Positions 4,753 to 60,361 of a stretch of 64,000 nucleotides of DNA are shown piece after piece; the first letter of the stretch is position 1; each line of letters starts with the position of its first letter. The notes under the pieces are model-generated. The model saw nothing but the letters and a program-made list of their open reading frames with translations, searched no databases and was not told where the DNA came from. A program made the position numbers and the translations under genes. The stretch is from an uncultured Candidatus Saccharibacteria bacterium (GTDB taxonomy: Bacteria > Patescibacteriota > Minisyncoccia > Phycocordibacterales > PALSA-1337): the NCBI GenBank assembly GCA_964367745.1, contig CAYIYK010000003.1:10248-74247 (forward strand). The letters run 5' to 3'.

Positions 4753-5709
4753 CTACTTCATTTTTAACCTAGATCCTGCACCCAATAATAATAACACGAT
4801 AGCGATAGAAAAATGTGGTAAATGTCCCATAAGCTCCACAGGACCTAGCATAACTAATGTTGATAATAAGAATACAGCTAGGGTTATAGTTGTCGTTCGA
4901 GTAACAAGTCCGAGCATAAGGAACAATCCAAATAGCGCTTCTACAACGCCAGCTGAGAATGCAAACCAATAATCAGTAAACCAAGTAAAGCCGATATTAT
5001 GCATGAAATTCCAATGATACAGACTCAAGAAATTCTCAGTAAGTGAAGGAGACATTATCTTCTCAGAGAAGCCAAGAATAAAGAGATTTAGTCCTGTACC
5101 AATTCTTAGCAGTGGTAATCCATAAGAATGGATTTTATGTGTATATTCTTTGAATATTTCTGTATCAACTATTCTCCATTTTGGTCTTCCTACAATCATT
5201 GCAAATAAACTGAAACCAAGCATTTCGAATGTATCCATCATTTCCATAAAACCGTATTCTTTTATTCCAAGAATAAATAGAATCACGAGCAGAAAACCTC
5301 CGATTCTCTCATAATACCCTGCTAGTATCATTATTCCCGCTAGAGTTTGGGTAATGATAAGTAGTAAAGCTAGTGGACCGTTTGCAATTAGATTTGGAGC
5401 GAAGATAAAACCGTTATATGAAAATATAAGGAAAGACAATCCAAAACCAATACTTGAAATAGATATTACATAGGGTGCCCACTTCTCTTCTATACGACGA
5501 AACCATGCTGGAATCTTTAGCTTTTTTTCTAGGATATAACCAATGATGAGGATTACGATCACAGCTATAATAGCAATGATTACCGGAAGGTCTGTTAATT
5601 CATAAGGCCTTATTTCTTTTACTGGATGAGCAAACCATTTTACATGTGCTGAGACCAAAAAAGGAACTGAGAATAAAACTGAAACAATTGATAATATTTT
5701 TTTGTACAT
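4753..5709 (-). CDS. Hypothetical polytopic membrane protein (about 8 TM segments; possibly DoxX-like)
   Basis: 318 aa with multiple hydrophobic helices. No catalytic motif was recognised. Confidence 0.45.
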   Translation of the reverse strand: MYKKILSIVSVLFSVPFLVSAHVKWFAHPVKEIRPYELTDLPVIIAIIAVIVILIIGYILEKKLKIPAWFRRIEEKWAPYVISISSIGFGLSFLIFSYNGFIFAPNLIANGPLALLLIITQTLAGIMILAGYYERIGGFLLVILFILGIKEYGFMEMMDTFEMLGFSLFAMIVGRPKWRIVDTEIFKEYTHKIHSYGLPLLRIGTGLNLFILGFSEKIMSPSLTENFLSLYHWNFMHNIGFTWFTDYWFAFSAGVVEALFGLFLMLGLVTRTTTITLAVFLLSTLVMLGPVELMGHLPHFSIAIVLLLLGAGSRLKMK

Positions 5710-10804: not shown

Positions 10805-10883
10805 AATGGAATTAAATTTTATAGTAATGAATGATCATAAGCAATATTGCACGTTTAAACTGGCTATGCTATAGTGTTCCGTA

Positions 10884-11114
10884 ATGAAGACGATCGCCTC
10901 TATACTACCGTACATACAGATTGTACTTGCTGTAATACTTTTAACAGCAATACTTCTTCAAAGAACTGGAGCACAAATCGGTGGTGCTTTTGGTGGTAGT
11001 GACAATTTTAGTTCTGCATTCCACACAAGACGGGGCTTCGAAAAACAACTCTTCATTGTAACAATCATAGTTGCAATACTCTTTGCAATTTCAGCGCTTT
11101 TGAGTCTTATTTAA
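10884..11114 (+). CDS. secG: Preprotein translocase subunit SecG
   Basis: 76 aa with two TM helices and a Gly-rich loop (LLQRTGAQIGGAFGGSDNF), characteristic of SecG. Confidence 0.65.
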   Translation: MKTIASILPYIQIVLAVILLTAILLQRTGAQIGGAFGGSDNFSSAFHTRRGFEKQLFIVTIIVAILFAISALLSLI

Positions 11115-11138
11115 CATTGACTAAAATCTATACATTAT

Positions 11139-14793: not shown

Positions 14794-14815
14794 TTGATGT
14801 TATAATTAACATCAA
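14794..14815 (+). promoter_or_regulatory. Perfect 9 bp hairpin (ttgatgtta-taat-taacatcaa) overlapping the start codon of the MFS gene
   Basis: The inverted repeat spans 14794-14802 and 14807-14815. The A of the ATG at 14815 is its last paired base. No T-tract follows. Confidence 0.3.
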
Positions 14816-15987
14816 TGAAGCATCATCACAGTATAAAAAAAGCGAGTGCACTTTATAGTATAAGTGTAATCGCTTTTTTCCTTGCACTACATACAAGTAT
14901 TCCAACTTACTTTAACTCTAGCTTTCTATCAGGAATAACTGATGCAAAAACAGTGAGTATTGTATATTTGATAATATCTCTAACTACGATTGTGGGATTA
15001 TTATCTATGGATAGTGTTTTACATAGATTTGGTAATCTAAATACATCTATCGCTTTTATACTAGTTCAGATTTTTGTGTTCTACGGTTTGATAACATCAA
15101 CTTCCCCAAACACTTTGCTTTTCTTATTTATCATCGGTTCCAGTATGATTAGTTTAATTGGTTTTACTATCGATATTTTCCTCCAAAAAGGCACCGATTT
15201 AGGTCATACCGGAGGTATACGAGGTATGGTTATGACTGCGACAAATAGCGCATGGATACTTGGACCACTTCTTGGAGGTATGTTGGTTATTGGAAATAAT
15301 TATAAAGGAATATACATTGCTGGATTCGCTCTACTTTTCCCGCTTATATACTTGGTACATAGAAACTTCAAAGATTTTAAAGATTCACACTATGTTCAGG
15401 TCTCAGCCAGACAAACATTCCTAAAGATCCTTAGAGACAAAGACATCAGTAAGATCTTTATAATCAACATTGTATTGCAGACTTTTTATGCGTGGATGAT
15501 AGTCTATACCCCGATGTACCTTCATGAATATATAAAGTTTGATTGGAGTGAAATAAGTGTGATCTTTACTATAATGCTAATACCATTCGTACTTGTTCAA
15601 CTTCCTCTTGGTAAACTTGCTGATAAAAAGTGGGGTGAAAAAGAGTTGTTGGCAATCGGTTTTACAATCATTGGTATGACAACTGCGTCTTTAGTATTTT
15701 TTGATACAAAAAGCATTATGATTTGGTCTATCGCTCTTTTCTTAACACGTATTGGTGCGGCAACTGCAGAGATTATGATTGAGACTTATTTTTTCAAGAA
15801 AACTGATAAAAGAGATCCTGAAGTCTTGAGTATGTTTAGAATAACAAGACCATTGTCATATTTTATTGCGCCAATCATTACAACAGTCGGTCTTTCATAT
15901 ACAACTCAACCTTATTTATTTGTTATTTTAGGAGTTATCTGTCTATTGACCCTTTATCCTATTCTAAATATTAGAGATACGAACTAA
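14815..15987 (+). CDS. MFS transporter
   Basis: 390 aa with about 12 predicted TM helices and a two-halves MFS topology. Confidence 0.65.
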   Translation: MKHHHSIKKASALYSISVIAFFLALHTSIPTYFNSSFLSGITDAKTVSIVYLIISLTTIVGLLSMDSVLHRFGNLNTSIAFILVQIFVFYGLITSTSPNTLLFLFIIGSSMISLIGFTIDIFLQKGTDLGHTGGIRGMVMTATNSAWILGPLLGGMLVIGNNYKGIYIAGFALLFPLIYLVHRNFKDFKDSHYVQVSARQTFLKILRDKDISKIFIINIVLQTFYAWMIVYTPMYLHEYIKFDWSEISVIFTIMLIPFVLVQLPLGKLADKKWGEKELLAIGFTIIGMTTASLVFFDTKSIMIWSIALFLTRIGAATAEIMIETYFFKKTDKRDPEVLSMFRITRPLSYFIAPIITTVGLSYTTQPYLFVILGVICLLTLYPILNIRDTN

Positions 15988-16056: not shown

Positions 16057-17364
<1,308 letters not shown>

Positions 17365-17391
17365 TTATTTAAGATAAACAAAATAAAAAAT

Positions 17392-17426
17392 AACCTCCAG
17401 ATCTAGAATTTGGAGGTTATTTTTAT
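17392..17426 (+). terminator. Rho-independent terminator downstream of eno
   Basis: Stem aacctcca (17392-17399) pairs with tggaggtt (17411-17418) across an 11 nt loop and is followed by ATTTTTA. Confidence 0.7.
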
Positions 17427-17841
17427 GATTTCGACACAAACATTACATTTGTGTTGGCGCTGCAGGTGCTGGTGCAGCTGGCTTTGGTGTCTTTGCCATA
17501 TTATTCAAGTCACAGGTTGATTAGCTCCTGTGTGTACAAATTATACCGTCGTTTCAAGTCACTTGACCTTTCCCTCATTTAGTTGACATTGAGTCAAAAC
17601 GTTGGGTAAAAAAGCTATATAAAATGGTACTTTTTAGGTGTGGTGTAATGATTGGTGATATTAGAACATTTAGATCAAGTTTTGGCTATATATATTAAAC
17701 TGGATATGCCATAATCTTCAAAAACTTGACAAGATTATCATGGTATGCTAAGCTGTTTGTTAGAAGATAGCTTTACACGTTGGGGGCTACTTTCGTCCAC
17801 AAGGACTATCCAACGGTGAGGAGTGAGAGAATCCAATAAAC

Positions 17842-17880
17842 AACCGGCGCTAATTTCTCTCTGGGCGCCGGTTTTTTCTT
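17842..17880. terminator. Strong GC-rich hairpin terminator (aaccggcgc...gcgccggtt + TTTTTTCTT), possibly bidirectional
   Basis: A 9 bp perfect stem with a 14 nt loop is followed by T6 on the plus strand. It sits 17 bp downstream of the gpmA stop on the minus strand and about 480 bp downstream of eno on the plus strand. Confidence 0.6.
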
Positions 17881-17896
17881 GCCTAAATCTTAAACA

Positions 17897-18610
17897 TTAT
17901 AACGCCTGCTCTACCCCACCCTCCATCAAATAATATCTCTTCAAAGGTTTTAGATTCTCATCTAGCTCATAGACTATCGGAACTGCATTCTTTATCTCAA
18001 TTCCAACTATCTCATCATCACTTACGTTATCTATATGCTTCACCATTGCTCTTATACTATTGTTACTTGCAGAAATTAGAACTCTTTTACCACTCTTTAT
18101 AGCTGGCACGATCTCTGATTCCCAATATGGCATTACTCTCTTGATAGTATCTTCTAGTGATTCACCTAGCGGCAATTCACTTTCTGACAGATCAGCATAC
18201 ATTGGATCATGTCCTGGATATCTAGGATCATCTTTTGTTAATTGAAGTGGCTTGTCACTAAAACTTCTTCTCCATTTGTGTACTTGTTCTGGTGAATACT
18301 TTGCACCAATATCAGCATGCTTTTGTCCCTGCAAAGCTCCATAATGTCTTTCATTTAATCTCCAAGAGTATTTTATTGGTAAATCATTTATACCAATTTC
18401 ATTTACTACAGTATTTAAAGTATCTTTTGCTCTTTTAAGAACTGAACAAAAGGCCAAATCAAAACCGAAACCTGCATTTTTTAGATTTTTACCTGCAACT
18501 TTGGCTTCCTCAACTCCCTTCTCTGTTAGATCAACGTCTGTCCAACCACAAAACATCTTTTCAATATTATAAACTGTCTGTCCGTGTCTTATTATTACTA
18601 ATTTATACAT
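17897..18610 (-). CDS. gpmA: 2,3-bisphosphoglycerate-dependent phosphoglycerate mutase
   Basis: 237 aa starting MYKLVIIRHGQTVYNIEKMFCGWTDVDLTEKG. It contains the RHG catalytic His motif of the dPGM family. Confidence 0.9.
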   Translation of the reverse strand: MYKLVIIRHGQTVYNIEKMFCGWTDVDLTEKGVEEAKVAGKNLKNAGFGFDLAFCSVLKRAKDTLNTVVNEIGINDLPIKYSWRLNERHYGALQGQKHADIGAKYSPEQVHKWRRSFSDKPLQLTKDDPRYPGHDPMYADLSESELPLGESLEDTIKRVMPYWESEIVPAIKSGKRVLISASNNSIRAMVKHIDNVSDDEIVGIEIKNAVPIVYELDENLKPLKRYYLMEGGVEQAL

Positions 18611-18641
18611 AGACCGATATTATACAGTAAACGATATTTTA

Positions 18642-44240: not shown

Positions 44241-44603
44241 ATAGATAAAGTAACTACTGATAGCAAGTAAACCTGAAGCTAGTATTTGACTTAGGAAATA
44301 GTGAATATGGAAGTGATCTACAAATAAATACATTAAAAGTGTATTCACACCAAGATTTACGCTTGAGACAATAAAATAAATAGTTGTTTGTTTGTGAACA
44401 TCTTCGATACTTTTATCCTGAAATGTCCAGAACTTTTGCAATATAAAACTAACAGAGAATGCTATTAGGAAAGCAAGAATTGCTGAAATCAAATAATTTA
44501 TCTTAAAAATATCAACAAAAATAGCTAGGAAGGCCAAGTTAACAACCGCTGCAGTTCCACCAGATATTATATATTTTATTGTCTTAATTATTTTGGTTCT
44601 CAT
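44172..44603 (-). CDS. GtrA-family small membrane protein (polyprenyl-P-sugar flippase-like)
   Basis: 143 aa with 4 TM helices. The N-terminal motif IKYIISGGTAAVVNLAFLAIFV is typical of GtrA. Confidence 0.7.
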   Translation of the reverse strand: MRTKIIKTIKYIISGGTAAVVNLAFLAIFVDIFKINYLISAILAFLIAFSVSFILQKFWTFQDKSIEDVHKQTTIYFIVSSVNLGVNTLLMYLFVDHFHIHYFLSQILASGLLAISSYFIYSRFIFKNNAVVSTFDNQNKDNS

Positions 44604-59294: not shown

Positions 59295-59302
59295 ATAAAA
59301 TA

Positions 59303-60361
59303 TTATATCATTCTCTCAAGATTTTTTGGATTCGCAGAATTTATATAAGCATTTTCAGGACTAATCTCACCTCTTCTTACAAGTTCTGCCAAAGAACGAT
59401 TCATATCGATCATACCTTCTGCAGAACTAGTCTCTATAACAGTATTTATTTCATGTATTCTTTTTTCTCGGATTAGGTTTGCAACCGCAGAATTGTTTAT
59501 CAGAAGTTCATATGCTGGTATAAGTCCTCCTGAAATTCTAGGAATCAATCTTTGAGAGAAAATACCTGTCATACTTCCTGCAAGTTGAACTCTAATTTGA
59601 TCTTGTTGAGAGGCTGGAAAAGAGTCGATGATACGGTTTATAGTCTGAGAAGCAGTATTTGTGTGTAGTGTTGAGAATACCAAGTGACCTGTTTCAGCAG
59701 CAGTAACCGCTGTAGATATAGTCTCTGGATCTCGCATCTCGCCCACCAAAGCAACGTCTATATCTTCTCGAAACATTGCGATCAAAGCATTCTTAAAGTC
59801 TGGAGTATCTATTCTGACCTCTCTTTGATCTATAATAGATTTCTTTGATTCATAAATATATTCAATAGGATCCTCTATCGTCATAATGTGCTCATTTCTA
59901 GTTTGATTTATTATTTCAATTAAAGAAGCCAAGGTTGTACTTTTTCCTTGTCCGATCGGTCCTACGCAAAGGAAGAATCCTTGTTGTTTTCTAGTAAAAG
60001 ATTCAAGAATTGGTGGAAGATTCAACTCTGTAAGAGTCTTTATTTGTTTTGGAATAAGTCTAAGGGCAATAGAGATGAGGCTTTGTCTATAATACGCATT
60101 TCCTCGGAATCTTGCATTGGTCAAACTATAAGAAAAGTCTACGTCTTTGTCTTTATCAAAAAGTTCTTTATTTTCATCAGAAAGAAAAGTATTTATATAA
60201 CCTTTCATATCTGCAGCGGTGATTATAGGTTTTTTTGCAAGAGGTATAAGGCTTCCAGATACTCGAATAAGTGGGTGTCTACCTTCAGAAAGATGAAGGT
60301 CTGATGCACCCTCGTTTATCACGGTTGTAACAAGTTCTTCTATATCCCTTTTATAATCCAT
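59303..60361 (-). CDS. pilT: Type IV pilus retraction ATPase PilT
   Basis: 352 aa that aligns colinearly with PilT. Matching blocks are GASDLHL, Walker A GPIGQGKSTTLAS, IMTIEDPIEY, ALVGEMRD, AAETGHLVFSTLHT and the C-terminal AIRNLIRE-like block AVANLIREKR. Confidence 0.85.
   Translation of the reverse strand: MDYKRDIEELVTTVINEGASDLHLSEGRHPLIRVSGSLIPLAKKPIITAADMKGYINTFLSDENKELFDKDKDVDFSYSLTNARFRGNAYYRQSLISIALRLIPKQIKTLTELNLPPILESFTRKQQGFFLCVGPIGQGKSTTLASLIEIINQTRNEHIMTIEDPIEYIYESKKSIIDQREVRIDTPDFKNALIAMFREDIDVALVGEMRDPETISTAVTAAETGHLVFSTLHTNTASQTINRIIDSFPASQQDQIRVQLAGSMTGIFSQRLIPRISGGLIPAYELLINNSAVANLIREKRIHEINTVIETSSAEGMIDMNRSLAELVRRGEISPENAYINSANPKNLERMI

Follow-up and report, generated by a model that had tools for sequence, protein, structure and literature searches.

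What does an unusually long intergenic region contain in a bacterium whose genes otherwise lie close together? Genomes in the candidate phyla radiation are tiny, with very short intergenic regions, and few regulators are known from them. In the window, i.e. the whole 64-kb stretch of Patescibacteria (candidate phyla radiation) DNA analysed here, the convergent genes eno (16072–17364, plus strand) and gpmA (18610–17897, minus strand) are separated by 532 bp. We propose, from sequence comparison and with a probability of about 0.72, that this gap holds a micro-gene which has escaped annotation, is transcribed independently and lies on the minus strand, extending from about 17688 to 17385. The original prediction of a functional, unannotated element in the gap is in line with this, but not the strand, position and RNA nature that it had assigned, as the conserved part is the minus strand of 17385–17688.

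The length of the gap had rightly been called unusual. When ORFs of 90 aa or more are taken as genes, 50 of the window's 55 gaps measure 130 bp or less, and the eno/gpmA gap is the longest genuine one (an 865-bp entry was discounted as an artefact of ORF choice). Two other gaps of more than 300 bp without an ORF of at least 90 aa were observed at 10805–11138 and 44241–44599, one divergent and one convergent. The base composition had been overstated: a GC content of about 42% against about 30% was claimed, while we measure 0.37 for the gap (0.386 for 17420–17896) against 0.331 for the window and 0.35–0.36 for eno and gpmA. The GC excess of the gap over the window is small. The gene caller behind the public contig had called no gene in the gap, and the promoter/terminator scan gave no promoter-like sites above shuffles there. 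An identical contig occurs in SRR10761721. The Rfam scan that had been proposed as a check returned nothing at the gathering threshold, neither in the gap nor in the whole 64-kb window. At E <= 10, the interval 17300–17950 gave only sub-threshold matches driven by terminators, the best in the gap being STnc240 (18.5 bits, threshold 55) and Leu_leader (15.2 bits, threshold 50). ARAGORN found no tmRNA in the window and 27 loci and no tRNA in the window, and no tmRNA model of Rfam matched. The window as a whole is free of tRNA and Rfam matches.

Which stretch of such a long gap is functional is decided by conservation and not by the reading of motifs. We fetched 80 enolase loci from one-per-species genomes (labelled L003, L007 etc.) and compared them with the gap. 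The closest ones come from MAGs labelled Paceibacteria, Taylorbacteria or ‘Saccharibacteria’. Homologs found by blastn and nhmmer were confined to 17433–17695 and kept a constant orientation relative to eno. For this range, nhmmer E-values lay between 1e-30 and 1e-10 in related genomes and reached 1e-3 at the weak end of the listed loci; the homologous eno loci are L006, L007, L009, L010, L012, L013, L042, L038, L062, L040, L043, L033, L065 and L037. By these alignments, only this part of the gap (17433–17695) is unusual beyond chance. A pattern scan of metagenomes (TTTTGAC-N5-GTCAA-N50-80-GAGYTAAYCMAC) yielded 30 loci, with the element present in 16, of which 12 were new. Fourteen pattern matches that share one 97-nt span did not match the nhmmer profile of the element and were rejected as unrelated. 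These loci (L086, L087, L089, L090, L095–L102, L109 and L112), several of them on contigs labelled human gut, probably mark some other conserved sequence. In total, 27 distinct copies from Patescibacteria (Paceibacteria/Taylorbacteria-like) genomes and metagenomes were compared, and they reveal one conserved unit on the minus strand, at 17385–17688 of the window. Its parts, in the order of the minus strand, are as follows.

17660–17688, minus strand: putative distal promoter P1, with TAGCCA as −35 (17683–17688), a 17-nt spacer, and TGT plus TCTAAT as extended −10 (17660–17668).
17546–17659, minus strand: conserved upstream block, free of insertions and deletions in the alignments, with the motifs ATTACACCACACC (17637–17649), AGTACC (17626–17631), TTGAC-N5-GTCAA (17583–17597), ATGAGG (17573–17578) and CTTGAAAC (17551–17558).
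17540–17545, minus strand: TATAAT, read as the −10 of a proximal promoter P2, with the predicted start at the foot of the hairpin.
17511–17532, minus strand: 5′-UTR hairpin, stem CACAGG/CCUGUG with the invariant 10-nt loop AGCUAAUCAA, 11 nt upstream of the ATG in the window.
17499 to 17443, minus strand: micro-ORF, ATG at 17499–17497 and TAA at 17445–17443, encoding MAKTPKPAAPAPAAPTQM (18 aa).
17434–17454, minus strand: tentative small hairpin with the stop codon in its loop (ACACAAAUGUAAUGUUUGUGU), seen when the window transcript is folded to its MFE structure.
17385–17424, both strands: bidirectional intrinsic terminator with a stem of 14 bp, flanked by an A-tract and, on its other side, by a T-tract, at the end of eno (plus) and of the micro-gene (minus).

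The motifs named in the original prediction are all present, displaced by 1–2 nt at most, and three of them fall within the range of the unit.

17505–17513 and 17554–17562: tcaagtcac, both copies located in the motif check.
17558–17567: gtcacttgac, overlapping the conserved CTTGA of the unit.
17583–17597: ttgacattgagtcaa, identical with the invariant TTGAC-N5-GTCAA repeat of the unit.

Read in the sense of the minus strand, the conserved segment of the alignment ends at an invariant ATGGCAAAG; beyond it come a C-rich stretch that is periodic in steps of three bases and a conserved TAA. The 27 distinct copies have an ATG and an in-frame stop (TAA or TAG), with ORFs of 16–24 codons; for L111 and L103, the conserved ATGGC start was recognised by eye. 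The nine ORF lengths that occur among the copies all stay in frame. Pairwise differences at codon positions 1, 2 and 3 number 32, 18 and 42, and 21 synonymous codon changes stand against 40 non-synonymous ones, with a fast-evolving middle of the peptide. The peptides are rich in Pro, Ala and Thr and follow the form M-A-K-x-P-K-P ... Q/T-A, examples being MAKTPKPAAPAPAAPTQM in the window and MAKGPKPAPAAPTPAPTQM, MARTKKPEEPQAPQTPPTPAPQA and MAKQAKPVPPQPQTPPPTPPTEA elsewhere. The layout is the same in the more distant copy of L037, whose peptide is less rich in proline. These alignments demonstrate coding constraint on the micro-ORF, and we infer that translation begins at its ATG and transcription at both predicted starts. 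The product is probably a short, proline-rich and disordered peptide. Since the middle of the peptide evolves fast, selection may act on its composition or on the act of translation, and not on a folded product. Searches of the peptides against Pfam and NCBIfam at E <= 10 gave no match, and the literature searched for small proteins, ncRNAs and leaderless translation in this phylum held nothing relevant. A conserved coding gene with a non-ATG start had been named as the finding that would speak against a small RNA in the gap. What we find is such a gene in spirit, although it starts with ATG and comprises 18 codons only.

Two other reading frames were considered and rejected. The antisense (plus) strand of the micro-ORF could encode a Gly-rich hydrophobic peptide, reminiscent of a type I toxin. 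This frame has no start in the window and is viable in 4 of the 26 copies, the start being missing or stops being present in the other 22; it shares the wobble positions of the micro-ORF. A longer ORF running from the conserved ATGAG into the micro-ORF would differ in frame between copies (TGANQP vs QELINL through the hairpin), meets early stops in the window, L013, L040 and L042, and lacks the start in at least four copies. As an observation on the 3′ end of the micro-ORF, in most close relatives (group A copies) a G stands directly after the stop, giving a UAAUG stop-start overlap (17443–17449 in the window). In the window, the second ATG opens a frame of 6 codons only (MFVSKS), and the conservation of UAAUG may instead reflect the small stop-codon hairpin.

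The hairpin upstream of the start codon is the one RNA structure of the unit for which covariation was found. Its loop is an invariant 10 nt with the consensus AGYUAAYCMA. Among 24 sequences, the covariation score is 0.348 compared to 0.202 in shuffles, of which 0 of 500 reach the observed value; 7 of the 8 pairs have changed on both sides, and 77.6% of the cells are paired, compared to 24–46% when the partner is slid. The inner five pairs include six G.U and no A.C combinations in the minus sense, thus the hairpin RNA is that of the minus strand. For the small stop-codon hairpin, the mean z is −1.5, with values below −1.5 in 13 of 26 copies, and a similar hairpin is seen in most copies when the folds are read individually. 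Its register varies, which results in a low pairing fraction in any fixed register, and we treat it as tentative. A terminator on the ORF strand follows the ORF in 18 of 26 copies when a strict script is applied that demands a stem and a T-run, and several of these are oriented for the ORF strand only; further ones are visible by eye with one mismatch. The distance from ORF to terminator is 7–60 nt in most copies. The predicted 151-nt minus-strand transcript of the window folds with z = −4.9.

Upstream of the hairpin, conservation extends outward over some 165 nt without a single insertion or deletion. Identity of the block to the window is 0.65–0.72 in close and 0.45–0.57 in distant copies, compared to 0.50–0.58 and 0.39–0.45 at third codon positions of eno. 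Spacings are fixed, with 44 nt from ATTA[CG]A to TTTTGAC and 37 nt from GTCAA to TA-N-AAT; in groups A and B, TATAAT itself stands exactly 37 nt after GTCAA. The block includes two inverted repeats, TTGAC-N5-GTCAA and TAAT-N10-ATTA, whose arms never vary while their spacers vary freely. The 165-nt block is not coding by our analysis, with stops in all six frames and no period-3 signal. Neither an all-against-all helix search nor RNAalifold detected covariation in any helix of the block, whichever strand was taken, in the same data that reveal the hairpin; with 26 sequences this is a fair, not an exhaustive test. An RNase P-like GAGGAAAG resemblance at 17573–17585 is not conserved in relatives and was dropped.

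Both ends of the block carry promoter-like signals, and neither P1 nor P2 was called by a generic promoter scan. In the TATAAT of P2, the third base alone varies in the block alignment (TACAAT, TAAAAT, TAGAAT), which is the pattern to be expected for a −10, and two group C copies read TATACT. Groups A and B have no −35 element for P2. We rejected CTTGA in that role, because its spacer to TATAAT is 6–7 nt in groups A and B: among 106 TATAAT promoters in related loci there is a weak TTG excess at 17–18 nt and none at 6–7 nt. L065 and group C (L110, L091, L093 and L107) carry exactly 10 extra nt between CTTG and TATAAT, and this insertion brings the TTG to the canonical spacer of 16 nt. A Shine-Dalgarno-like motif precedes one of 40 window genes (at least 200 aa), and many window genes have a TATAAT 6–17 nt 5′ of the ATG (e.g. 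at 14801–14817, 18611–18630 and 59295–59313). Promoters with a −10 only, and leaderless or short-leader mRNAs, thus appear to be the local norm. Over 26 copies, the mean match to TTGACA at the block's outer edge peaks at a spacer of 17 nt (3.23 vs about 1.6 elsewhere), which suggests a second promoter transcribing the block. Its −35-like hexamers read TAGCCA, TTGCCA or TTTACA; in most copies they stand 17 nt from TG-N-NNTAAT, the TG being seen by eye. The hexamer of P1 has C instead of A at the second position, and its TAAT is at the same time the left arm of the repeat TAAT-N10-ATTA. The P1 signals are kept even in copies in which the surrounding sequence is not otherwise conserved.

The distribution of the unit is patchy. 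Within 4 kb of eno it was not found in most of the 80 eno loci, including several close relatives such as L005 and L008. L055 carries a decayed remnant of the micro-ORF on the minus strand (5440–5500), with the 3′ half homologous to the L042 copy. This remnant directly follows a PAP2-type membrane protein gene and has kept the terminator, whereas the ATG, hairpin and upstream block are gone. Absence near most eno genes and decay in L055 indicate that the unit is dispensable or mobile within genomes. A unit of about 300 bp is kept in at least three sub-lineages, between which enolase identity is 64–90%, and such retention despite tiny genomes makes it likely that it does something important. 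Where eno is adjacent to the unit, it is convergent. A phosphoglycerate mutase gene usually flanks the unit: gpmA lies upstream on the same strand in the window, L003, L007, L043/L108, L104, L092 and L093, while gpmI, which is unrelated to gpmA, lies divergently in L006, L111 and L103. Neighbours across the copies include gpmA, gpmI, a kinase, a nuclease, MazF and AlaRS, and this diversity indicates that the unit is autonomous. A functional link to eno was rejected, as some copies of the element have no eno in their vicinity (L084, L088, L110, L107). As a side observation, the occurrence of gpmI (L006 6152–7672, L111 11731–13344, L103 2183–3685) or gpmA (window 17897–18610) at the same position beside the micro-gene suggests in-place displacement of the mutase type.

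How could such a unit work? We read it as a small-protein gene family, described nowhere so far, with an unusually conserved control region. Transcription from the TATAAT of P2 would place the hairpin at the 5′ end of an mRNA of about 150 nt, and P1 at the far edge of the block would probably add a longer transcript. The block would act mainly as DNA, with the inverted repeats as operator sites at fixed distances from the −10. The hairpin, in contrast, would act on the RNA, controlling stability or translation in a genome that seems otherwise leaderless and devoid of Shine-Dalgarno motifs. On the alignments we favour this combination of a tandem-promoter DNA control region and an RNA-acting 5′-UTR hairpin; a functional RNA leader is a real alternative. 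If P1 were the main promoter, the block would be a 165-nt RNA leader and not a set of DNA control sites. The whole unit would then be one regulatory RNA of about 280 nt, in which the block serves as a ligand- or protein-binding leader or as a trans-acting sRNA domain, with a dual function through the micro-ORF. We regard this as possible but on balance unlikely. It would account for the −35 and extended −10 with a 17-nt spacer at the outer edge of the block in most copies, and for the unbroken conservation from P1 to the ORF, indel-free over about 130 nt of the block. In groups B and C, the alignment and alifold allow UACAYC to pair with GRUGUA, and the 5′ motif with the segment that follows the repeat. 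CCAUA can likewise pair with UAUGG at the start codon, and a z of −3.4 was obtained for the fold of the window transcript. However, these candidate long-range pairings break down in group A or in several of the sequences, and no helix of the block covaries across groups, while the neighbouring hairpin does so in the same alignment. A riboswitch-like leader would be expected to contain several compensatory helices, and in this unit it is only the start-proximal hairpin that covaries. The inverted repeats are invariant, which makes them uninformative for RNA pairing and is typical of protein-binding DNA. Rfam gave no match to the element, neither in the window at E <= 10 nor in eight other copies, none of which had a match at gathering score. 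The absent covariation is compatible with an RNA that is recognised by its sequence.

A further reading appears rather improbable to us. Here, the unit would be a lineage-wide regulatory device of a new kind in Patescibacteria devoid of Shine-Dalgarno motifs. Hairpin and proline-rich micro-ORF would jointly respond to the state of ribosome, EF-P or Pro-tRNA. The output would be either the peptide, with the translation machinery as its target, or read-through of the terminator, antisense to eno/gpm. The hairpin loop and its flanks AGGAGCUAAUCAACC resemble what we take to be the complement of the 16S rRNA 3′ tail, and eno and gpm, beside which the unit usually stands, encode two adjacent glycolytic steps.

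The part of the gap on the gpmA side had been the core of the original prediction, which placed there a plus-strand transcript of 110–120 nt, from about 17760 to 17878. The features in question are the following.

17689–17896: window-specific segment outside the conserved unit, with TTGACA (17726–17731), TAAGCT (17749–17754) and the GC hairpin with T6 (17844–17877).
17726–17731: TTGACA, in the window-specific segment, not called by the promoter scan.
17844–17877: GC hairpin followed by T6, in the window-specific segment.

Thus, of the motifs that were thought to mark a functional element, ttgacattgagtcaa and gtcacttgac belong to the conserved unit, but TTGACA and the GC hairpin lie outside of it. 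The enolase of L003 is 99% identical to that of the window, and the first 300 nt of the gap share 96% identity. This homology ends at window position 17661 and restarts near the gpmA stop codon. Hence, 200–230 bp with the TTGACA, the candidate transcript and the GC hairpin are specific to this strain. No homolog of 17662–17896 was found in any fetched locus or elsewhere in the window, and the conservation check that had been suggested comes out in favour of 17433–17695 only. In the minus-strand sense, an A-tract stands before the GC hairpin and the T-rich tail TTGTTTATT after it, so that the hairpin can terminate gpmA. From this comparison, we read 17689–17896 as a strain-specific insertion that carries a bidirectional gpmA terminator. 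The segment is bracketed by imperfect 15-nt direct repeats, TGCCATAATCTTCAA (17707–17721) and TGCCTAAATCTTAAA (17880–17894), which a small insertion may have left behind. We note that the GC-rich terminator of this segment stands in an AT-rich genome.

A plus-strand sRNA of 110–120 nt, reaching from a TTGACA-17-TAAGCT promoter (17726–17754) to the GC hairpin with T6 (17844–17877), is very unlikely. All of its sequence elements are indeed present, including the 17-nt spacer and the perfect hairpin with T6, and the 128-nt stretch folds with z = −2.9. However, this fold value is mostly owed to the terminator hairpin, which is accounted for as gpmA terminator on the other strand. The −35-like TTGACA exists as a sequence, yet the scan did not call the promoter and counted fewer promoter-like sites in the region than in shuffles; Rfam gave no match above threshold, and the segment is missing from L003 and every other locus.

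Least credible of all is an attenuator, in which stalling at Pro codons of a leader peptide (reporting Pro-tRNA or EF-P status) sets terminator formation, and read-through controls a downstream gene or makes eno antisense RNA: in most copies the tiny ORF rich in one amino acid does lie 7–60 nt 5′ of a terminator, some copies contain PPP and a same-strand ORF of 141–163 aa follows in L006 and L009, but group A peptides have no consecutive prolines, no conserved antiterminator pairing was found, the Phe_leader and Leu_leader matches are far under threshold and cover terminators only, and in the window and at least L003, L007 and L013 the stretch between element and convergent eno is free of same-strand ORFs, so that there is nothing to attenuate.

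The small-protein gene that we favour can be compared with several known systems. Small-protein genes and dual-function sRNAs are known from other bacteria, for example SR1/SR1P of B. subtilis and the MgtS-type micro-proteins of E. coli. Similar to these, the unit described here is a stand-alone element of 150–300 nt with its own predicted promoter and intrinsic terminator, an ORF of less than 50 codons that is missed by gene callers and has conserved start and stop, and a hairpin in the untranslated part. Obvious differences are the peptide, which is 16–24 aa long, rich in Pro, Ala and Thr and without hydrophobic helix or Cys motif, and the upstream conservation, which at about 165 nt is far more extended than usual. 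With attenuators (Phe_leader RF01859, Leu_leader RF00512) the unit shares a very short ORF biased to one amino acid and an intrinsic terminator close behind; however, most copies are not followed by a same-strand gene, an antiterminator alternative is missing, and scores of 15–20 bits compare to thresholds of 50–55. As with tmRNA (SsrA), its RNA would be some 300 nt long and enclose a short ORF whose last residue is often Ala, and the stop may lie in a small hairpin loop. Unlike tmRNA, it has no tRNA-like acceptor/T-arm domain, and its ORF starts with an invariant ATG and is located at the 3′ end. The inverted repeats recall operator sites of sigma-70-type promoters, such as FNR/CRP-like TTGAT-N4-ATCAA and Fur/Zur-like TAAT...ATTA half-sites. 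As in operator-controlled promoters, the repeats are invariant with variable spacers, stand at fixed distances from TATAAT, overlap a −10-like hexamer in one case, and a 10-nt insertion keeps the helical phase; in contrast to FNR/CRP and Fur/Zur sites, the repeat spacings of 5-5-5 and 4-10-4 fit no known consensus. The unit is of a known kind, namely small-protein genes and dual-function RNAs missed by annotation, and belongs to no described family. Invisible to gene callers and Rfam, it adds a candidate micro-protein family, and its control region with two invariant operator-like repeats could identify the regulon of a transcription factor where none has been mapped.
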